A stretch of 64,000 nucleotides of DNA from an uncultured Gammaproteobacteria bacterium (GCA_963829065.1 CAWHHK010000015.1:90310-154309); one strand, 5' to 3'. Shown: positions 52,238 to 64,000, numbered from the stretch's first letter. Numbers and translations are program-made. Notes: generated by a model not told the origin, from the sequence alone.

Positions 52238-52261
52238 GCGTCAGCATCAGGTAGGTGAATC

Positions 52262-53526
52262 ATGAGCGAAACCCACGTCCAGTCAGACTCCGACTTTCCG
52301 GATCCGTACACGATTGCGCTCGCCGACATCGACGTCGCGCAACCCGAGCTGTTCCAACGCAACCTCCACTGGCGCTACTTCGAGCGACTGCGCGCGGAAG
52401 ACCCGGTGCATTACTGCGCGCACAGTCTGTTCGGGCCGTATTGGTCGGTGACGAAATTCAAAGACATCATGGAGGTCGACACGCATCACCAGGTGTACTC
52501 CTCCGAAGGCGGCATCACGCTCGGGCCGCCGATGGCGATGCAGGAATCGCAGATGATGCGCATGCCGATGTTCATCGCGATGGATCCGCCCAAACACGAT
52601 GTTCAGCGCGCGACCGTGAGTCCGGTCGTCGCACCGCGCAATCTCGCGACGCTCGAAAGTACGATCCGCGAACGCGCCGCCAAAATTCTCGACGCGCTGC
52701 CTCGCAATCAGACGTTCAACTGGGTCGAACGCGTCTCGATCGAACTCACGACGCAGATGCTCGCGACGTTGTTCGATTTTCCGTTCGAGGATCGCTACAA
52801 GCTGACGCGTTGGTCGGATGTCGCGACGGCGGCGCCCGGCGGCGGCGTCGTCGAGACGCGCGAACAACGCCGCGAAGAACTGATGGAGTGCCTCGCGTTA
52901 CTTCACGCGGCTTGTGGAACGAGCGCGTCAACGCACCGCCCGGTCACGACCTGATCTCAATGCTGGCGCACGGCGAGTCGACGCGGAACATGGCGCCGAT
53001 GGAGTATCTCGGCAACCTGATCCTGTTGATCGTCGGCGGCAACGACACGACCCGCAACTCGATCAGCGGCGGCGTGCTCGCGCTCAATCAGAATCCCGCC
53101 GAGTATCAGAAGCTGCGCGACGATCACACGCTGATCACGAACATGGTGTCGGAGATCATCCGTTGGCAGACACCGCTCGCGTATATGCGGCGCACGGCGC
53201 TCGTCGACACGGAACTCGGCGGCAAACGCATCAAGGCCGGCGACAAAGTGCTGATGTGGTACATCTCCGGCAACCGCGATGACACCGCGATCGACGCACC
53301 CGACGAGTTCCGGATCGACCGGCCGAAAGCGCGGCAACACCTCGCGTTCGGCTTCGGCATTCACCGCTGCATGGGCAATCGACTCGCCGAGATGCAGCTG
53401 CGCGTCGTGTGGGAAGAGATCATGAAGCGCTTCCGCCTCATCGAAGTCGTTGGCGAACCCCAGCGCACGTTCTCAGCGTTCGTCCACGGCTACACCGAAC
53501 TGCCGGTGAAGGTGCACGCGGCCTGA
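52262..53526 (+). pseudogene. Cytochrome P450, CYP153-like (terminal alkane/aliphatic hydroxylase type), one frame disruption near 52900
   Basis: N-terminal part is ORF 52262..52954. The C-terminal part, in ORF 52255..53526, has the I-helix NLILLIVGGNDTTRNS and the heme-binding loop FGFGIHRCMGNRLAE. Confidence 0.85.
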
Positions 53527-53568: not shown

Positions 53569-54788
53569 TCAGCGCTCACCGAAAGATTCATTGAGCGTCT
53601 TGCGCAGCGGTTTGAGCAGGACGTCCATCAAGGACCGCTGTCCCGTTCGGATATTCACCTGCGCGGTCATACCGGGGACGATCTCGAGCGTTCGGCCGGT
53701 GGTCGTTCGAGCCGGCGCATTGTCCGGCTTCACGTGCACGCGGTAGTACACCTGCGTCCCTTGCTCGGATTGCTCCTTCAACGTGTCGGCACTGACGTAG
53801 ACGACTTTCCCGGGCGTAGTGCCGTAGATCGTGTAGTCGAACGGATCGAAGCGGATGTTGGATACCAGACCCGGCGCGACGCGAGCGATGTCGGCGGGGC
53901 TGACGCGGCATTCGATCAACAGCTCGTCCTCGACCGGGACGATCTGCATGAGCTCTTCGCCGGGGCCGAGTACGCCGCCCACCGTGGTGACCCGGATGTT
54001 CTTGACGATTCCCGGAACCAGCGCAATGAAGACGCTGTTCGCTTGCTCCTCGAGCCGGCGGATCAACAACTGTTCGTTCTGGGCGATCTCGTCCTCGGCT
54101 TTCGTCAGCTCCAGTACGGGCGTCCTCGAGAAAACGGTTGCGCCGGTTGACCAATGCGGCCTGCGCTTCGTTGAGGCCGCGTTCGGCCCGCAGCAGCTCG
54201 GAGCCGCTGGCATCGCCGTCCTTGTAGAGGCTCTGCACCAATGCCAGCTCCCGCGTCGCGAGATCCACCGCGACACGCAGCGTGCTCAGCTCTTCGGACA
54301 GGCCGGTACGGCGCTGCTCGAAGAGCGCTCTCTCGACTTGCGTGATCTCCGGCGCCTGTTTCTCGAGATCCGTCGGGAAACGCCAGTTGCTCGCGGCCGA
54401 CGACTTCTGCGCGCAGGCGCGCGACTTTGGCCTTCAGCGCGAACAGGCGCGCATTGATTTCGCCCACCGTCGCGGCAAAGCGGGTCTGATCCAGCCGCGC
54501 GAGGACTTGGCCTCGCTGCACGCGATCGCCTTCGTGCACCAGCAGTTCGTTCAGCACGCCGCCATCCACGGACTGAATGACCTGCACGCGAATGCCGGTG
54601 ATGACCTCGCCTTTGGCGCGAGCGACTTCGTCGATCTGGAACACGCTGGCCCACACGATGAACGCAGCGACGGCAACCGCGAGCACGAGCAGCACCGTGC
54701 CGTAGCGGCCGCGATGCGCCTGCTGCAGTCGTTCGATCCGCCGTCGCGTGAAGGGGCTGTCCTCGTTCGCAACGCCGTCAAACCACAT
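53569..54788 (-). pseudogene. Type I secretion membrane fusion protein (HlyD family), several frame disruptions
   Basis: N-terminus with TM anchor in ORF 54105..54788 (..GTVLLVLAVAVAAFIVWASVFQIDEVARAKGEV..). The coiled-coil piece is in ORF 53588..54268. The C-terminal ..GMTAQVNIRTGQRSLMDVLLKPL.. is in ORF 53569..54276. Confidence 0.85.
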
Positions 54789-56959
54789 CGGCTTTCCCTC
54801 TTTGGCGAGGATGCGCGGCGGGCAGTCGTGAAGCCTGTCCGACCATCTGCGGCAACAGCGCCTCCGGCCTGCCGTCCCGGACCACGCGCCCCTGCTGCAT
54901 GATCAATACGCGATTGACCAGCCTGCTCGCCATCAGCGGCCGATGGGTGCTGACCACCAGAATGTCGCTCGGACGCAGAGAGGTCTGCGAGCGTCTGCCA
55001 CACGCGCTCCTCGACTTCTCTGTCGAGCGACGCCGTGGGCTCGTCCAGAAGCCATATGCGGGGCTGGTTGATGAACACGCGCGCCAGCGCAACGAGCTGG
55101 CGCTGGCCGCCCGAACAGACCTTCGCCGCCTTCGCTGATCGGCAGGTCCATGCCCTGCGGGTTTGCGGCGGCGATCGCGTCGATCCCCAGTTGCCGGCTG
55201 ATCTCGAGCAGGCGGTCGTCGCCGGCCGTGCCGCTGAGGCAGAGATTGCTGCGCAGCGTTCCTCGGAACAGGTGCACCGATTGCGGCAGGTAGCCGATCT
55301 GAGTGCTGACCAGCAGCGGATCGGTTTCCCACAGATCCGCGTGTCCCAGTCGCACGCGTCCCTCGCTGGGCCGATACAGGCCCGCCAGGACTTTCAGCAG
55401 CGTCGATTTGCCCGAGCCCACCGGACCCACGAGCAGGACTCGATCGCCCGGACTCGAGGCGCAACTGGTCGACGATGAGTTGGTCGGATCGGCGAGCCCG
55501 CGTACGCGAAGCGGACACCTTCCAGTGCGATCGCCGTGGGGTCCTCGTCGGGAAGCAGCAACTGTTGGTCGGGCGACGTTCGGATGCGAGCCCGAGGACC
55601 TGGTGCACCATCTTCAGCGCCTGGCTGACGTGCTGCCACTTCTCGAGGTACTGCACGCTCTGCGCGACCGGCGCAATGATCCGGCCGCCGAGAATGCTGC
55701 AGGCGATCAGGCCGCCCATGGTCAGCAGGCCCGCCTCGATCTGCCAGACACCGACCACCACCGCAGCGAACGTACGCGATGGTCGAGAGACTGCTGGTGG
55801 TGACCGTGGAAGGAACTGCTGATGGCCCGCTGCTGTATCGCGTAGCGATCGATGCTCGCGGTGATCTCCTGCCACTCCCCGGCGAAGCGCCAGCCGGCGT
55901 TGTTGGCGCGGATCGATTCGGCGCCGCGGATGCTGTCGACCAGCAGTCCCTGGCGCTCGTTGCTGCGCGAAAGCTGGTTGCGCAACAATCCGCGCAACCG
56001 CCACTGGGTGACGAAGCCCAACAACAGCGCCACCGGCAGCAGCAGCGCGTAGACCCACGCGACAGCGCCGCCGATGACGCCGATGAAGGCGAGAAACATC
56101 AGCGCGAACGGCAGATCCACGAGGGCAAACACGACGGTGGCGGAAAAGAACTGGCGCACGGCTTCGAGGCTGCCGACCTGCGCAGCCAGTGTCCCCAAGG
56201 ATGCGTGGTTGCGCGTCCAGTTGAACGTGCAGCAGGTGCTCGAAGACCTGCTGCGAGACCCGCTGATCGACGGCGCACGGAAAGGCTGTCGAGGATTCGC
56301 GCGCGAATCGTTTTGAAGCGTCCAGTCGAGCACCACCACGATCGCCATGCCGGCGACGAGAGTCGGTCAGCGTGGCGTAGGCCATCGTCGGCACGACGCG
56401 ATCGTAGACCTGCATCGCGAATAGTGAAGTGGCAACGCCGATCAGGTTGACCAGGCAGGTCGCCACGACGATCTTCCACAGCCACCCGCGATCCCGAAAC
56501 AGTTCCTTCCAGACCAGTCGGGTCGCCAGGTTCCCCGACAGCGTCGGCGGTATGCGTCCTGCGAGCGCGACGACTGCTGCTTGATCCAAAGCACCTGCGG
56601 CGCCGTCGAGTTCGCGCGATCGTCAATCGTGGACTGTTCGCCGTCTGCCGCGGTCAGAAGCGACACTGTCGGTCTGCGCATCGCTCGCGAAGTACCACGC
56701 GTCGCGGTGGCGGATCAGCACCGGCAGGCGGCGCGGGTCGAAGCGCTGCCAGGGCAGCAGGACGAGCAGCCACGTCTTTCACGTTGCGCGGCGATCAGCA
56801 CCTGGCGCAGCCATTGGGTAGGTCGAGCTGCCTGCGCCGAGTCCGACGCGCTCTTCCGCCTCGCGCAGTCGCGTCGCTGTCGCAGGCGATATCGAGCGCA
56901 TTCAGCAGTCGCTGTACCAACGCCAGATCGGGGGCGGTCGCCCAAGTTCCGTTGCTCAT
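54778..56959 (-). pseudogene. Type I secretion system ABC permease/ATPase (HlyB/LapB-like), many frame disruptions
   Basis: ATG at 56959 (MSNGTWATAPDLALVQRL..) overlaps the TolC stop by 1 nt. TMD fragments (..LWKIVVATCLVNLIGVATSLFAMQVYDRVVP..). Walker A GPVGSGKSTLLK in ORF 54933..55430. Walker B WLLDEPTASLD in ORF 54551..55078. Confidence 0.85.
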
Positions 56960-58251
56960 CAGCCATCGTTTCGCTCTTGAAGGCCTGCCAGGCTGTCGAG
57001 GTCGCCGATCCTGGCCAGCAGTCGCAGGGAGTAAATCTGCCAGTCGGTTTGCGTCTGCACCAGCTGGTGCCTTTGCTCGAACAGCTCGCGCTGGACGTTC
57101 AGCAGATCGAGCCAGCTCTTGGTGCCGCTCTCGTATTGCCGCTGATAGGAGGCCAGCAGCGATTCGAGGTCGGCAAGCGACTGCGGTCTGCAAGCCGATC
57201 AGTTCGAGTCTGGAGTTCGCGCTTGCGCTGCAGATGTCTTGATTTGCCGCGTCAGCTCGACCTTGGCGACCGCGAGGTCCTGCGTCGCCGCCACGCGGCT
57301 GGAGACGGCTTCTGCTGTGCGTCCGCGGGCCGCAAAACCGAGTCCCTCCAGCGACGCTTCGAACACCACGCTCGCCTGGCTGTCGTCGTCGCAGCCCAGG
57401 TTGGTCGTAGATACCTGTCCGCCTGCAGATAGATGGTCGGCATGGAGGCTGTCCTGGCCCGGTCGACTTCCGACCTCCGCCTGCCCGAGCTGCGCGCTGC
57501 TTGACGCCAATTTCGGCGCTTTGATCGATCGCCTCTTCGAATCAGGTCCGTGGACTCGCGCAGCTCGAGCAGTCCCGGCGGGTACCGGTTCATCGGCGCT
57601 GACTGTCACCTGGGTGAATCCAATCAGGTCGTCCTCGCGTGCCTGGCGATTCGCTGATGGCGCGTTCGAGCAGCGCGCGCGCTTCCGCGAGCCGCGCGGC
57701 GGCGAGACGCGCATCCGCGCTCGAGGCGAGCTGTCCCGCTACGCGACGCTGGATCTGGTCGGACAGCTTCTCGTGCTCGGTCACGTTCTGCCGCGCAATG
57801 TCGATGTGCTGCTGGCTGCCGCGCACGGCCGCATAGGCCACGGCGGTGTCTTCGAGCAGTTGCCGGCGCACGCGCAAGAGGTCGGCGCGCTCCGTGCTCA
57901 CCTCGGCGTTCGCGACAGCAATGCTGTTGTCGATGCGGCCAAACGCCCAGATCGGCTGCCGGGCACGCAGTATGTACGGCTGAGAGAGGTCCTCACGACC
58001 CTGCGACGAGCGACCGCCGTCACCGTACTGTTGCGCCTGGCCGTGAGCGACGGGGATAGCGCTGGCTGCGAACTGCGTCTGCCGCGTGTCGTTTCGCGTC
58101 CACTTGCGCCTCCTGGCCGGCGACGGCCGGATGATTGTGCAGCGTCGCCTGCAACGCGTCGCTCAGGCCGTCGCCGTCGGCAGGGCCGTACCGCACAGCA
58201 GGCAGTTGATCAGTAGCGATCGCCAGTAACCGGGACCCGGAACTTGGGCAT
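56959..58251 (-). pseudogene. TolC-family outer membrane channel, many frame disruptions
   Basis: Candidate ATG at 58251 is followed, in shifted frames, by the signal-like LLINCLLCGTALPTATA and ..LSDALQATLHNHPAVAGQEAQV... Internal ..LLEDTAVAYAAVRGSQQHIDIARQNV.. is in ORF 57590..57901. The C-terminus reads ..TDWQIYSLRLLARIGDL..-stop. The gene sits inside the T1SS operon. Confidence 0.65.
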
Positions 58252-58327
58252 GTGGATTCACTCGGACAGGAACAGGTAGTCGAGGCGGATGGGCGGTTCG
58301 TGGCGTCGGAGGCCAGAGGGAGCCTGG

Positions 58328-60914
58328 TCATCTGCGGGTCTGGCCCAGTGCGCAGCGTCCTGATCCCGGCGCGTCCATGCGATACGCCAGCGCGAGATCG
58401 CGGCGCCAGTGGCGGTTCCAGGGACAGCGTTCGACGGCCCGCTCCATCAGACGCGATGCCGTCGTCGCGGTGACCCTTGCGCACGTAAATCGAGGCCGAG
58501 CATGAAACGCGCGGCGGCGTGCTCCGGCAGGTAGTGCAGCAGCCGCTTGAAACGATACTCGGCCGCGTCCAGGTCGCCTTCGTCGATAACGGTCGACACC
58601 GACGATTCAACCAGCCCGGCTCCGGCAGCGTCACCATCTCGATCGGCTCCGACGGAAATCATCCGATTTGCCGCCGCGATCAAGGGTCCCAGGTGTTGCT
58701 GATAGCGGTGCCATCTCGCCTGCGAGCTGGCGTAGAGCGGCTGGCGCACCTGCCAGACGCTGGCGGTCTTGACGGGGCGCTCCAGCGTCGTAGAAGTCGA
58801 GCACCTGCGGTTCCCAGTCGACACCGATGTGATCCAGCATGCGCCGCGCGCTGGTTGCCGGGTCGTCGACGATGTCTTCGTATCGGATCTCGAGAATTTC
58901 TCCGGGGAACACTCGCTGCCAGTGATGCATCAGCAGGTTGTGGTCCGCGAGCTGCTCGCCGATCCAGTCGAGGTGGTACGCGAATCCCATGCCGCGCGTG
59001 CTTGCTGGCGTAGTCGATGAAATAGTTGGAGACGGCGACGTCGCGGGGATCGCGGCGCACCGAAATGATCTTCGCTCTCGGGAAGAGCAGTTTGATCAGG
59101 CCGATGTTCTCGAAGTTGTGGGGCAGCTTGTCGACCACGTGATCGGCGTCGGGGGCATATTCCGCGCAGTTCGTTCAGGACGTTTTCGGCAATGCGCCGA
59201 GGTCACCTTCGGATCGAGGTCATCCACACAATCGGGATAGCGGCGCCCGGAGCCGGTGTGGCGTTCCCAACGCTCGAGCCCGGCGATCACGCGCGGAATC
59301 GTGCCCAGTTCGCCGGCTCCATGAATCCGGCTGTGCCCGGCGATGATCTGCTCCACGAGCGTGGTGCCAGAGCGAGGCATGCCCACGACGAACACCGGCA
59401 GGGTGGTTTCGTGACCGCTGCCCGGACGGTTCTCGTACAGCGCCTTGGGAAAGGCGTGGCGGATGCGGGCGCAGTACTGGCGGTGGGCCTTCGGGTCGTA
59501 GCGCAGCAGCCGGCGACTGGCTGCGTTGGCTTCGTCTGCGAGCGCGAACGCTTTGTCGTAGTCCGCGCGTTTTTCCCAGAGCGGCGGCGAGCTGAAACAG
59601 CAGGCTGGTACGCACCGAGCCTTCCATGCCAGGTGTGCGGGCGAGCTGTTCCAGCCGTTGCAGGGTGTCCGCGTCCTCCGGAAAACGACGTGCGTTGATC
59701 AGCGCGCCGTGACCCCGTGTCGGGTCGATGACCTTGACTCTGCTCGAACAACGCCACCGCCTCGTCGATGCGGCCGAGCTGCATCAGAGCTGACCCAGCC
59801 CTTCTAGCGGCGGCGATCATGTCCGGGCGTTGCTCGAGCACGTGCCGATAGCGCTGTTCGGCCGCGCGATAGTTCTCTTCCTGGACCTCGACACCGGCCA
59901 GCGCCACCTCGACCTGCAGACGCCCCTCAGTGATTTCGTCGGTGCTGCGGAGGTCTGCTTGGCGAGCTGGTCTCGAGCTCGCTCGGCTGCTTCTCTGGCC
60001 AGCACGGGATCGGATTGCAAGGCGATGGCTGACAGCCGGATCAACAGCCCCTCAGTGGGCTTGTCCTGCGCGTTCGCGAGATGGATGGCGCGTCGAAGCA
60101 GCGCGATGGCCTGGTGCGTGCGGCCCTGCAGTTGCGTCACCTCCGCGAGCTGTTCGTAGAGCGCCAGCTGTTCGCGGATGGCGGCGCAGACCGGTGCGCA
60201 GCCACTCCTCTGCCTGGGCGTGGCGATCGCGTGCGGCCAGGCGCTGAGCGAGATCGGACAGCAGTGCGCACCATTCGTCTTCGTTCAGCTGTCCGCGTTG
60301 CTGCTCGACCCAGGCTTCGGCCGCCTCGAAACGCGTCCTGCGCGAGCCATAGATCGAGTTGCATACCCCGCAGCTGCTGGCGGTGGATCTGACGCTGATC
60401 GTCGGGCCAGTTGCGCCTGTTCTTCGTCCCAGAACTCCCACGCCGCATCGAGACACGCGACCATGTCGGTCAGACGGCCGCTGTCCCGATAGAGCTCGCA
60501 GCAGGTTGTGGTACACCGCGAGGAACGGCCGAAGGCGTCAGGCTCCGCTGATACAACGCCAGGGCCTGATCGCGATTTCCCTGCTGCAGCCGACACCAGG
60601 CCAGACGGGCCAGCAGCAGCGCGTGGTCGCCGTTCTCCTCGCTGTTCGGCCTCGAGGATGTCGATGGCCGGGTCCAGCTCACCCAGCGCGATGTAGACCG
60701 CGGCCAGATCGACGCGCGCATCGAGCGAGAGTGCGCCGCGATCGAGTGACGCGACCGCGCGCCGTCCGGCGGACGTATCACCGAGATGGACATCGGCCAG
60801 GGCCAGAAGAACCCGCACGCCAGGGTCGCGGGAATCGACGTCCAGACAGGCTTCGCGCAGAGCCGAGTAGTCGTGATGCTCCGCCAGGCGGCGAAGTAGG
60901 GTCAGTGCCTCCAT
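58328..60914 (-). pseudogene. TPR-repeat protein with a central PAPS-dependent sulfotransferase domain, many frame disruptions
   Basis: TPR-like helices are in ORFs 60285..60914, 60052..60516, 59817..60140 and 59287..59907. The sulfotransferase 5'-PSB motif VFVVGMPRSGTTLVEQI is in ORF 59096..59395. The 3'-PB-like ISVRRDPRDVAVSNYF is in ORF 58680..59138. More TPR follows (ORF 58447..58824). The stop was read near 58328. Confidence 0.75.
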
Positions 60915-60921
60915 GATCGTG

Positions 60922-63900
60922 TCAGGTCACGCCAGACCCTGCGAGGTCGAGCATGATCGCGGGCATGTTCGCGAAGGGCATGCCGTGCGTCTGGCCTTCA
61001 CCGCCGTCGACGAAAGCACCCGTCACCGGCGCATCGATCAGTGGCGGAACGGCCGAGGAAGTTACCTGGAACGCGCCATCGGCGCCGGCCGGAGCCTGCC
61101 GAAGCAACCGCCGCCTCAATGATCGATGTTTGATTCACCGATGCGTCATTGCCGACGAGCGTGACGCGGTCATCGCTACCAAGATTGGCGGAGCCACCCT
61201 GAAAGTGTCGGACAGCGTCGGCTGGTCGACCGCGACTCGGATGTCGATTCCGTCGCCAGCGGGGCTCTGAAAGGTGCGGCTGATGCCGGCGCTCGGCGCG
61301 ACACCGAACGGAACGATGAGCGGGCTCGTATCGAAATTGAGCGTGGTGTTGTCGCTGATGCCCGCATAGGCATTGCCCGCTTTGTCGGTCAGCGCACCGG
61401 CGTCGATCTGAACGCTGTACGTAGTGCCGGGAGCCAGGTCGAGGTCGGATTGATCGTGACGTGGTTGCCGCTGATGCTGACCTGCGGGTCGGTGACGTCG
61501 ATCGTGCGGATATCCAACCCGCCACTGATCACGATGTTGCCGCTGCCGGCCTGCATGTTCTCGCTGAAAGACAGCACGATGTCGTCTCCCGGGGGGACAT
61601 TGTTTGCATCGTCCGCCGGCGTGCTGGAGGACAAGGTCGGCGCGGTCGTGTCGACGACGAAAGGACGGGTTGTTGGGAACGGACCCGTGGCTGAGGTCCG
61701 CCACATTACCCGTCGGGTCCGCGATGGAGCCGCCGTTACGCTCCAGCGTGTTGGCCCGGATGCTGATGCCGTTGTTGTCGGTTTGACCCGGCTGAATCGT
61801 GTATTCGAAAATCAGACTGGTGGTGCCGCTGCCGGAGACATAGCCCGCTTCGACTCTGTCGCCGCCGATGGAAAGCTCGATGCGCGGGGTGCCGCCGGAC
61901 GTATCGACCAGTCGTGTTCTCCGTCATCGTCACCGTGACGCTCACCGTGTCGCCGGCATTGAGAATGCCGTTCTGCGCCCCGACTGCGCCGGTCAGCGCG
62001 ACGTTGGCGACCGCGGGCGGGGTTTCGTCGACGATGTTGTTGATGGCCAGCGAAACCGCTTGTTCGCTGTGGTTGCTCGCCGCGTCGGTCGCGACCACGG
62101 TGAAAGCGTAGCTCGACTTCGTCTCGAAGTCCGGGTTCCCGGTGAGCGTCACGTCGCCGGTGCTGGCGTTGATGCTGAAGGCCGCCGCGTCACCACCGGC
62201 TTTGAGGCTGTAGGTGGTGCTGCCGGTGCTGATGTCGCCGGTGTCGGTGCTGGTGACGGTGTAGACGACCTGACCGGCGCCGCTGTTTTCGGTGATCGCG
62301 GTGGCAGTCGCGCCGGAGGTGATCGTCGGCGCCACCTCATCGAGGTTGTTGATCGCCAGGGTGACGGCCTGCTCGTCGCTGTTGCCGCCACCGTCGGTGG
62401 CCACCACGGTGAAGTTGTAGCTCGGCTTCGCCTCGAAATTCGGGTTGCCGGTCAGCGTGACGGCGCCGGTGTTGGCGTTGATGGTGAAGGACGCCGCGTC
62501 GCCGACCGGCTTTGAGGCTGTAGGTGGTGCTGCCGCTGACGATATCGCCGGTGTCGGTGCTGGTGACGGTGTAGACGACCTGACCGGCGCCGCTGTTTTC
62601 ATTGATCGCGGTGGCGGTGGCGCCGGAGGTGATCGTCGGCGCCACCTCGTCGAGGTTGTTGATCGCCAGAGCTGACCGCCTGTTCGCTGCTGTTGCCGGC
62701 AGCGTCGGTGGCCACCACGGTGAAGTTGTAGCTCGACTTCGCCTCGAAGTTGGGGTTCCCGGTCAGCGTGACGGCACCGGTGTTGGCGTTGATGGTGAAC
62801 GCCGCCGCGTCGCCGACCGGCTTGAGGCTGTAGGTGGTGCTGCCGGTGCTGATGTCACCGGTGTCGGTGCTGGTGACGGTGTAGACGACCTGACCGGCGC
62901 CGCTGTTTTCATTGATCGCGGTGGCAGTCGCGCCCGAGGTGATCGTCGGCGCCACTTCGTCGAGGTTGTTGATCGCCAGGCTGACGGCCTGCTCGGCGCT
63001 GTTGCTCGCCGCGTCGGTCGCCACGACCGTGAAGTTGTAGCTCGGCTTCGCTTCGAAGTTCGGGTTCCCGGTCAGCGTGACCGCGCCGGTGCTGGCGTTG
63101 ATGCTGAAGGCCGCCGCAGTCACCGCCGGCTTTGAGGCTGTAGGTCGTGCTGCCGGCGCTGATGTCGTCGGTGTCGGTGCTGGTGACGGTGTAGACGACC
63201 TGGCCGGCGCCGCTGTTTTCGTTGATCGCGGTGGCCGTCGCGCCGGAGGTGATCGTCGGCGCCACCTCGTCCACGGTTGTTGATCGCCAGGCTGACCGCC
63301 TGCTCGGCGCTGTTGCTCGCCGCGTCGGTCGCCACCACGGTGAAGCTGTAGCTCGACTTCGCTTCGAAGTTCGGGTTCGCCGGTCAGGGTGACGGCGCCG
63401 GTGTTGGCGTTGATGCTGAAGGCCGCCGCGTCACCGCCGGCTTTGAGGCTGTAGGTGGTGCTGCCGGCTGATGTCGTCGGTGTCGGTGCTGGTGACGGTG
63501 TAGACGACCTGACCCGCGCCGCTGTTTTCGTTGATCGCGGTGGCCGTGCGCGCCGGAGGTGATCGTCGGCGCCACCTCGTCGAGGTTGTTGATCGCCAGG
63601 GTGACCGCCTGCGTTCGCTGCTGTTGCCCGCCGCATCGGTGGCCACGACCGTGAAGCTGTAGCTGGACTTCGCCTCGAAGTTCGGGTTCCCCGTGAGCGT
63701 GACGGCGCCGGTGTTGGCGTTGATGCTGAACGCCGCCGCGTCACCGACCGGCTTTGAGGCTGTAGGTGGTGCTGCCGGTGCTGATATCGCCGTGTCGGTG
63801 CTGGTCACGGTGTAGACGACCTGACCCGCGCCGCTGTTTTCATTGATCGCGGTGGCAGTCGCGCCGGAGGTGATCGTCGGCGCCACCTCGTCCAGGTTGT

Positions 63901-64000
63901 TGATCGCCAGCGAGACAGCACGTTCGCTGCTGTTGCTGGCCGCGTCGGTGGCCACCACGGTGAAGGTGTAGCTCGACTTCGCCTCGAAGTTCGGGTTCGC
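60922..64000 (-). pseudogene. Giant repetitive adhesin (cadherin-like ~103-aa repeats plus Ig-like C-terminal domains), probable T1SS substrate. The 5' end lies beyond the window. Many frame disruptions.
   Basis: Repeats read ..VAPTITSGATATAI.ENSGAGQVVYTVTSTDTGDISTGSTTYSLK..GDAAAF.INA.TGAVTLTGNPNFEAKSSYNFTVVATDAA.NS.EQAVSLAINNLDE. Then come ..VVDTTAPTLSSSTPADDANNV..IVLSFSENM.. (Ig-like) and the C-terminal ..GMPFANMPAIMLDLAGSGVT-stop at 60922. This stop is 7 nt before the sulfotransferase gene. Confidence 0.8.
62040..64000. repeat. Coding tandem repeat array, period about 309 bp, more than 6 units, continuing past the window end
   Basis: The landmark ggtgaa(a/g)(g/t/c)(c/t)gtagctcg(a/g)cttcg recurs near 62100, 62409, 62719, 63029, 63338, 63649 and 63958. 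Confidence 0.9.

Follow-up and report, generated by a model that had tools for sequence, protein, structure and literature searches.

A conserved module linking a TPR-flanked sulfotransferase to a cadherin-repeat adhesin and its putative type I exporter

The locus and its reading frames

Near one end of a 64,000-nucleotide stretch of DNA (the window; contig C15:90310-154309 of G000, a metagenome-assembled genome, or MAG, of a soil gammaproteobacterium with 36 contigs and 5.1 Mb that is scored as 75.6% complete), five genes lie head to tail on the minus strand and encode, in order, a cadherin-repeat adhesin, a sulfotransferase flanked on both sides by tetratricopeptide repeats (TPRs), a TolC-family channel, an ATP-binding cassette (ABC) transporter and a membrane fusion protein (MFP). 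An initial annotation of the window had proposed this arrangement and had suggested that the sulfotransferase modifies the adhesin before its passage through the encoded type I secretion system (T1SS). The open reading frame (ORF) listing between 53.4 and 64 kb contains only short, overlapping minus-strand ORFs, but their translations are pieces of these five proteins, and Pfam searches of the fragments and tblastn with an intact orthologue uphold the order. Comparison with other genomes points to a conserved gene module in which the sulfotransferase is very probably tied to one family of secreted proteins, and sulfation of the adhesin itself is the mechanism that the evidence favors.

Reading through the frame breaks moved several gene boundaries. 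The adhesin stop, previously placed at 60922, is instead a TGA at 60929-60927, with a +1 frameshift near 60945, and the protein end reads ..LTSQGLA*. For the sulfotransferase, drawn at first as 60914..58328, the ATG at 60914 stands and the stop is now read at 58258 (..LDYLFLSE*), while TolC retains both its ATG at 58251 and its stop at 56959. The ABC gene keeps its 3' end at 54778; its start, formerly set at 56959 with a 1-nt overlap with TolC, is by homology the ATG at 56966 (MADEQ..), which overlaps the TolC stop by 8 nt. The coordinates of the MFP gene (54788..53569) were kept. Spacing is 12 nt between adhesin and sulfotransferase and 6 nt between sulfotransferase and TolC, and the other junctions overlap.

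A dynamic-programming alignment that tolerates frameshifts, made between the window and the proteins of an intact relative, G007, called for 20 frameshifts in the sulfotransferase gene, 19 in TolC, 20 in the ABC gene and 2 in the MFP gene, together with at least seven in the C-terminal third of the adhesin; +1 insertions account for 50 of the 61 events in the first four. Once corrected, the genes contain no in-frame stops at all and their products are 65-82% identical to the intact G007 orthologues (657 of 879 residues for the sulfotransferase, 331 of 413 for the MFP, 82% for the ABC transporter). The MAG also breaks rpoB, an essential gene, into five frame pieces, and a hidden Markov model of third-codon-position GC (GC3) phase, run over the whole genome, places the two 5-kb bins containing most of the locus (window coordinates 54,691-64,690) at about the 90th-95th percentile, with ∼10% of the genome's 5-kb bins equally or more frame-broken. 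Because the corrected genes are free of stops, rpoB is broken too and the pattern is genome-wide, and because real decay with some 60 indels would be expected to bring nonsense codons and radical substitutions, we read the ∼60 breaks as long-read assembly artefacts in an operon that is, judging from these alignments, intact in life. Homopolymers were considered as the cause and rejected, the +1 insertions falling mostly in CG-rich non-homopolymer contexts. The error pattern is heterogeneous, both across 54800-61000 and genome-wide, and is unlike the classic homopolymer-deletion type.

The density of breaks weighs against the artefact interpretation, being ∼8 per kb here versus ∼1 per kb in rpoB, and the initial annotation had itself allowed that genuine breaks would mean a decayed operon. 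That the ∼60 frameshifts packed into ∼7.5 kb mark a string of functionless pseudogenes is nevertheless highly unlikely: the corrected frames remain open and close to intact orthologues, the prevalence of +1 insertions has the character of a technical bias, an essential gene and a tenth of the genome share the damage, and G000 is scored far below its sister genomes of the same size, which are 97-98% complete.

Table 1. Features of the locus (window coordinates) and the evidence for each.
Feature	Position	Strand	Evidence
Adhesin gene, 3' part	60927..64000	minus	tblastn with the G007 orthologue P0001; frameshift-aware alignment; motif count
Conserved C-terminal domain of the adhesin	60927..61330	minus	Alignments; ∼130-aa beta-rich body plus tail ..NMPAIMLTSQGLA*
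TPR-sulfotransferase-TPR gene (∼885 aa, frame-corrected)	58258..60914	minus	Pfam on fragments; orthologue P0002; frameshift-aware alignment
Sulfotransfer_3 domain, PAPS-dependent catalytic	58800..59400	minus	GMPRSGTT (5'-PSB), GAGE catalytic Glu, DKLP Lys, VRRDPRD (3'-PB)
TolC-family outer-membrane channel gene	56959..58251	minus	P0003: OEP 1e-43, TIGR01844 6.9e-42
LssB-type T1SS ABC permease/ATPase gene	54778..56966	minus	P0004: TIGR03375, 590 bits
C39-like domain, N-terminal ∼130 aa of the ABC protein	∼56520-56966	minus	AF2 fold match; no catalytic Cys
HlyD-family MFP gene	53569..54788	minus	P0005: TIGR01843 1.6e-93, above cut-off
Abbreviations: PAPS, 3'-phosphoadenosine 5'-phosphosulfate; PSB, phosphosulfate-binding; PB, phosphate-binding; AF2, AlphaFold2.

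Conservation and co-occurrence of the module

In a DNA search of 40 relatives, seven congeners had the sulfotransferase region at 75-81% identity; it also turned up in a different genus of the same family, there at 68%. The genes are uninterrupted in G007, G008, G011, G012 and G023, where the order is a TonB_C-like gene, cargo (the adhesin and its counterparts), sulfotransferase, TolC, ABC and MFP, and the synteny from cargo to MFP extends to G005. The cargo proteins of intact relatives measure 900-1,100 aa, with three to five Cadherin domains plus Big_5, and the sulfotransferases 726-905 aa. Scanning one genome per species with a pattern from the sulfotransferase alignment gave 31 loci, whose flanks were read by tblastn and ORF clustering. 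The order cargo-sulfotransferase-TolC-ABC-MFP recurs in ∼23 of the 31, spread over several phyla, and in essentially every locus with enough flanking sequence; two more genomes, both from the class sample introduced below, show it as well. Carriers include Zobellella endophytica, Rubrivivax sp. RP6-9, Marinobacter, Oceanobacter, Litorivivens, a Myxococcota MAG, Ca. Azotimanducaceae and many Pseudomonadales MAGs. The exceptions in order are Pseudorhodoferax, with ABC-MFP-cargo-sulfotransferase, and two Porticoccaceae with an unlinked sulfotransferase, in which three to five proteins still carry the conserved C-terminal domain of the cargo (the cargo domain). One locus, L032 (NZ_JBGQOM010000007.1), is labelled Flavobacterium sp. 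W21_SRS_FM6 and holds a proteobacterial-type module with TolC, ABC, MFP and a sulfotransferase of 52% identity, which may point either to horizontal transfer or to an assembly that is mislabelled or contaminated.

How closely the sulfotransferase and the cargo domain travel together was gauged in an even sample of 401 genomes of the class and a sample of 301 of the order (Pseudomonadales). The cargo domain is rare, occurring in 2/401 and 2/301 genomes, and all four of these carry a full-length sulfotransferase orthologue scoring above 1,000 bits; in G309, G112 and G578 it stands beside the cargo gene and is followed, where the sequence permits, by TolC-ABC-MFP. Scores of the sulfotransferase profile in the order sample are bimodal, exceeding 1,000 bits over positions 2-886 in exactly the two domain-bearing genomes, with only short paralogues of 205-290 bits over positions ∼340-750 in 72 others. 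Two genomes of that sample thus have both partners, none has either alone and 297 have neither (2/0/0/297, G000 itself excluded). Short TPR-Sulfotransfer_3 paralogues of ∼530-810 aa, for example G004:C9:90866-92173, occur in 74/301 Pseudomonadales genomes, often two or three to a genome.

Among 41 relatives, domain and sulfotransferase are found together or not at all, with G012 and G004 as the exceptions. In G012 the profile missed a divergent domain that can be seen in its locus (L019). In G004 there is an orphan 867-aa cadherin/Big_5 paralogue (L062:10443-13046) without the LTSQGL tail, in a genome with no sulfotransferase orthologue and with no T1SS adjacent to the gene; the paralogue could be decaying, could have taken on another role or could be an artefact of the MAG. 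The initial annotation had reasoned that syntenic operons without the sulfotransferase would undermine its proposal, and no operon that keeps cargo and T1SS and lacks the sulfotransferase alone was found in the class and order samples or among the relatives. To judge from these comparisons the five-gene module is a real and conserved unit that moves horizontally, and we consider it very probable that the sulfotransferase is functionally tied to this specific cargo family and its T1SS.

Beyond the module on its upstream side, 13 loci as well as G000 have, directly before the adhesin, a gene for a protein of 550-780 aa with a C-terminal TonB_C domain (∼67512-69074 in G000, beyond the window; L015:4547-6475). 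On the other side, a cytochrome P450 gene with the heme motif FGFGIHRCMG (window 52255-53526, plus strand) converges on the end of the MFP gene and marks where the operon ends downstream; the N-terminal half of the P450 likewise looks frame-shifted.

Sulfotransferase, exporter and cargo domain

The sulfotransferase had been called PAPS-type from its GMPRSGTT and RRDPRD motifs, and Pfam bears this out: Sulfotransfer_3 is found on the window ORFs 59096-59698 and 58680-59174, which carry VVGMPRSGTT and ISVRRDPRD, with TPR families on four neighbouring fragments and OEP on the ORF 58020-58658. The intact orthologue P0002 matches PF13469 (Sulfotransfer_3) at 1.5e-45 over its full length along with TPR families, and ∼600 of its 900 residues are TPR. 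Outside the TPRs, its best sequence matches in the PDB are protein-tyrosine sulfotransferases (TPSTs), comprising TPST1, TPST2 and a TPST fragment: 8w5z at 8.7e-15, TPST2 (3ap1) at 2.7e-13 and TPST1 at ∼1e-11. The CurM and OLS sulfotransferases match far more weakly (1e-8 or weaker versus 1e-14). In the alignment to 3ap1 and 8w5z, GMPRSGTT falls on the TPST 5'-PSB loop, E536 on the Glu of GEE, K596 on the Lys of NKDP and R621 on the Arg of VRDGR, residues that we take to be the counterparts of TPST2 E99, K158 and R183 on the basis of the alignment and the numbering of the published structure. The 5'-PSB, the 3'-PB (RD..R...S) and the catalytic Glu and Lys are thus all kept, as in TPSTs, and the catalytic and PAPS-binding residues are invariant both in the orthologue alignment (A1) and in an orthologue of a different family that is 48% identical.

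The likeness to TPST1 and TPST2 (E ∼1e-13 over ∼200 residues) is confined to the catalytic domain. TPSTs are type II membrane proteins of the Golgi lumen that lack TPRs and act at acidic Tyr sites of secretory proteins that follow a folded pathway, whereas the bacterial enzyme is TPR-flanked and its cargo has no acidic Tyr motifs. Its N-terminus has no signal peptide or hydrophobic segment, which places it in the cytoplasm, the site of PAPS production. Two APS-kinase domains (adenosine 5'-phosphosulfate kinase) in CysNC-sized ORFs give G000 the capacity for PAPS synthesis. Weak PDB matches of the TPR arms include the TPR region of OGT (E 1.6e-9) and that of PEX5. In OGT a long TPR superhelix is likewise fused to a transferase that depends on a nucleotide cofactor or nucleotide sugar, and the lumen of its TPRs binds extended substrate polypeptides; catalytic fold and chemistry differ, and the analogy is architectural only. 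This resemblance suggests that the TPR arms may bind an extended polypeptide or the conserved C-terminal tail of the cargo.

The transporter has the parts of a T1SS. The ABC orthologue contains ABC_membrane and ABC_tran and scores 590 bits against TIGR03375 (LssB-type), under the 693-bit cut-off, compared with 286 for TIGR01846 (HlyB) and 281 for TIGR01842; genes for an HlyD-family MFP (TIGR01843, 314 bits against a cut-off of 208.65) and a TolC-family outer-membrane protein (TIGR01844, 144 bits, under cut-off) stand beside it. The N-terminal ∼130 aa of the ABC protein gave no Peptidase_C39 match at E≤5, and no conserved Cys or His was seen there in an alignment of 12 orthologues (A3). An AF2 model of this domain (predicted local distance difference test, pLDDT, 79.4) finds its best folds in the C39-like domain of HlyB (3zua, 1.4e-4) and in HlyB/D (8dck), ahead of true C39 peptidases. 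A C39-like, HlyB-like N-domain without a conserved Cys implies that the substrate is a large uncleaved protein rather than a peptide with a double-glycine leader.

Such a protein is encoded directly upstream of the sulfotransferase in every cargo-bearing locus with linked genes, at lengths of 782-2,577 aa. The G000 gene extends past the window to ∼67513 and encodes ∼2,190 aa, in which an N-domain resembling the BapA prefix is followed by a hydrophobic stretch rich in Gly and Ala, 16 repeats, Big_5 and the conserved C-terminal domain. The repeats were counted from 16 FTVVATD units at ∼309-nt spacing, corresponding to cadherin-like repeats of ∼103 aa, which makes the adhesin large and the earlier description of it as giant an overstatement; intact congener orthologues match PF00028 (Cadherin) five times plus Big_5. 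The match of the N-domain to the BapA prefix is weak (NF033677, E 3.6e-4, below cut-off). The hydrophobic stretch that follows it, rich in Gly, Ala and Leu (..GGSPLLWGGLAAGGLGLAALAGGGGGS..; ∼67000-67300 in G000:C15, L015:7100-7250), could be a membrane-embedded or plug segment. Repeats-in-toxin (RTX) nonapeptides (GGxGxD), already reported as missing from the visible part, are absent from all frames of the whole G000 gene, and orthologues gave no PF00353 match; other cargos have zero to two isolated chance GGxGxD matches each.

In the most distant loci, conservation is confined to the last ∼160-200 residues of the cargo. Two motifs, DTSIVVFDLvxGxSSdHSGRtF..vSYxIYiRVdS and W..W.g..nLGsDDrIvLVGxG, precede a nearly invariant extreme C-terminus, ..MPxGILTSQGLV. 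The G000 domain is a divergent subtype without the SYxIY tyrosines. Neither Pfam nor NCBIfam gave a match to the ∼160-aa domain at E≤5, and comparison of its beta-rich AF2 model (pLDDT 79.8) with PDB folds gave nothing better than E=1.8. When 1.84 billion representative proteins were searched with a profile of the domain, only 348 clusters came back, with the domain almost always at the extreme C-terminus, and the nine cargo-family members sampled from this library all have cadherin/Big passenger domains. A few giant proteins of 2,405-7,573 aa (P0006-P0010) repeat the first ∼130 positions of the domain internally, in six to nine copies, from which we take the domain to consist of a repeatable body and a separate ..ILTSQGLV tail. 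The Zobellella endophytica cargo (L024:5357-9991) has the domain twice in one ORF, the internal copy lying ∼230 aa before the terminal one. We presume the cargo domain to be the secretion and recognition element of the module, which as a whole is best explained as exporting a family of cadherin/immunoglobulin-repeat surface proteins through a dedicated HlyB-like (LssB-type) ABC transporter, MFP and TolC.

Relation to known systems and the likely substrate

The module resembles RaxST-RaxAB and HlyC-HlyBD yet lacks the features that define Rax, RTX and Lap systems. The Rax system of Xanthomonas oryzae (raxX-raxSTAB), named at the outset as the one established link between a sulfotransferase and a T1SS, is the closest described analogue. 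It too places a cytoplasmic, TPST-like, PAPS-dependent sulfotransferase in an operon with an MFP and an ABC transporter, the modification is presumed to precede export, and the genes for PAPS synthesis lie elsewhere in the genome. RaxST is the tyrosine sulfotransferase, RaxA the MFP and RaxB the ABC transporter, with RaxC (TolC) and RaxPQ (PAPS synthesis) encoded elsewhere. However, Rax handles a peptide of ∼60 aa rather than a cadherin-repeat protein, and its ABC transporter carries a leader-cleaving C39 peptidase where the module has a non-catalytic C39-like domain. RaxST, by its description, is a small single-domain protein, whereas the sulfotransferase here is ∼900 aa long with TPRs on both sides. 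The module moreover has TolC inside the operon and is spread over many environmental lineages, whereas Rax is restricted to Xanthomonas. Our full-text search of the literature found the pairing of a sulfotransferase with a T1SS only for Xanthomonas Rax and found no published description of the module; the sulfotransferases treated by Iyer et al. 2010 (PMC2938197) are linked to dioxygenases and not to this module.

The HlyC-HlyA-HlyBD system of E. coli likewise encodes a dedicated cytoplasmic modifying enzyme together with its large T1SS cargo and a transporter of the ABC type bearing a C39-like domain, and HlyA is modified while unfolded and exported C-terminus first, as we propose for the module. 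It differs in its chemistry (acyl-carrier-protein-dependent acylation of Lys versus sulfotransfer), in its RTX repeats and in its degenerate signal, in place of which the module has a conserved, sequence-defined C-terminal domain. Lap-type systems, the frame of reference of the initial annotation, turned out to be a poor fit. LapA/LapBCE/LapG/LapD and BapA-type systems share with the module a large repeat adhesin, an operon-encoded T1SS and, weakly, the BapA-prefix-like N-domain; the module differs in its sulfotransferase, in its lack of RTX repeats and in having no linked C93 (LapG) peptidase, and for its ABC transporter the LssB model is a closer fit than HlyB or PrtD. A LapG-like C93 peptidase (PF06035) is absent from three module carriers, G007, G008 and Rubrivivax (G726), and in other module genomes lies on other contigs or far away, never adjoining the module. 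Lap-type retention was accordingly rejected as a coupled feature, in a search that covered PF06035 (LapD was not searched for).

According to the mechanism that we regard as best supported, and on balance probable from the sequence comparisons, the sulfotransferase would modify the adhesin before its export. The adhesin would be kept unfolded in the cytoplasm, like other T1SS cargo, and the TPR arms would hold the extended polypeptide, possibly docked on its C-terminal domain or tail. The enzyme would then O-sulfate hydroxyl side chains, and the modified adhesin would leave C-terminus first to be displayed on the cell surface or released from it. Homology to TPSTs makes Tyr the likeliest acceptor, although this is less certain than sulfation of the adhesin as such. 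Since T1SS cargo is unfolded before export, tyrosines in the repeats would in principle be accessible. The tyrosine contexts singled out in the initial annotation (VVYTVTSTD, TTYSLK) are not special, however, being ordinary strand motifs of cadherin repeats in a protein of ordinary Tyr content (∼2-3%) with few tyrosines beside Asp or Glu. The SYxIY Tyr pair, which is invariant in 16 typical C-terminal domains, the Tyr before the tail and the DYEAP Tyr of the N-domain were each considered as a universal acceptor and rejected, because each is missing from some sulfotransferase-linked cargos.

Several observations weigh against this mechanism. None of the tyrosines is shared by every cargo protein: those of SYxIY are missing from G000 (GDGIDIRV) and from L017, L019, L021, L027 and L028, all of them adjacent to a sulfotransferase gene, and the DYEAP Tyr is limited to a clade. 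Tyr is not enriched in the cargo (1-3% in most) and few residues have acidic neighbours, unlike canonical TPST and RaxST sites. The short TPR-sulfotransferase paralogues are common and tied to no T1SS, so the architecture alone is no proof of an adhesin substrate, and Sulfotransfer_3 also takes in enzymes that sulfate hydroxyls of non-protein substrates, among them CurM and OLS, the weaker PDB matches.

Some of these observations lend weight to the alternative that the sulfotransferase belongs to the module but acts on something other than the adhesin, be it a glycan, lipid or small molecule, bound to the adhesin or exported with it, or a different protein, for instance one of the T1SS components. 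Since the cargo lacks both a universal Tyr and an acidic setting for its tyrosines, since CurM and OLS belong to the same family and since the TonB_C-like gene is conserved upstream, such a target deserves consideration, but we think it unlikely. TPSTs are clearly the best matches of the catalytic domain, arms made of TPRs suggest that the ligand is a protein or peptide, and the cargo domain is the only strictly co-occurring partner besides the T1SS. Nor does the module include conserved genes for glycosyltransferases, lipids or polysaccharides.

It is less probable still that the TPR protein serves mainly as a cytoplasmic chaperone or targeting adaptor that prevents the cargo from folding and delivers its C-terminal domain to the ABC transporter, sulfotransfer being secondary, regulatory or vestigial. 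PEX5 and Hop are examples of TPR proteins that recognize C-terminal peptides; the preponderance of TPR in the protein, the PEX5 match and the nearly invariant cargo tail all fit such a role. Yet every PAPS-binding and catalytic residue is invariant across orthologues of 48-84% identity, which implies selection for catalysis, and an adaptor function would not exclude an enzymatic one. That the real substrate is an unannotated small peptide with a double-glycine leader, Tyr-sulfated, cleaved and exported like RaxX, as Rax, the sole described bacterial pairing of sulfotransferase and T1SS, might lead one to expect and as the initial annotation had entertained, is extremely unlikely given the HlyB-like ABC N-domain without Cys or His, the lack of room between genes that overlap or lie 6-12 nt apart and the finding of no conserved small-ORF cluster across the 31 loci.

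Combining sulfation of the adhesin with recognition of its C-terminus leads to a more far-reaching proposal, which we offer tentatively and consider possible rather than likely: the C-terminal domain and its ILTSQGLV-COOH tail may define a new, sequence-specified class of T1SS cargo, with the tail read by the TPR arms and the adhesins O-sulfated in the cytoplasm before export. To our knowledge the RaxX peptide of Xanthomonas is the only documented case of bacterial protein sulfation. If the adhesins are indeed sulfated, O-sulfation of Tyr or other hydroxyl residues would recur as a modification of surface proteins among bacteria of soil, freshwater and marine lineages and would be one not so far known for bacterial adhesins, with a bearing on surface charge, on the binding of metals or matrix and on mimicry of sulfated polymers from hosts or algae. 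After HlyC, the module would then be a second case of a dedicated modifying enzyme coupled to a T1SS with a C39-like-domain transporter, and its sulfotransferase, as a prokaryotic relative of the enzymes of animal tyrosine sulfation, would offer a tractable bacterial system for studies of TPST specificity. The cargo domain, being defined by sequence, would be useful for genome annotation, and the availability of cultured carriers (Zobellella endophytica 59N8, Rubrivivax sp. RP6-9, Oceanobacter sp. and Marinobacter) makes the idea directly testable.

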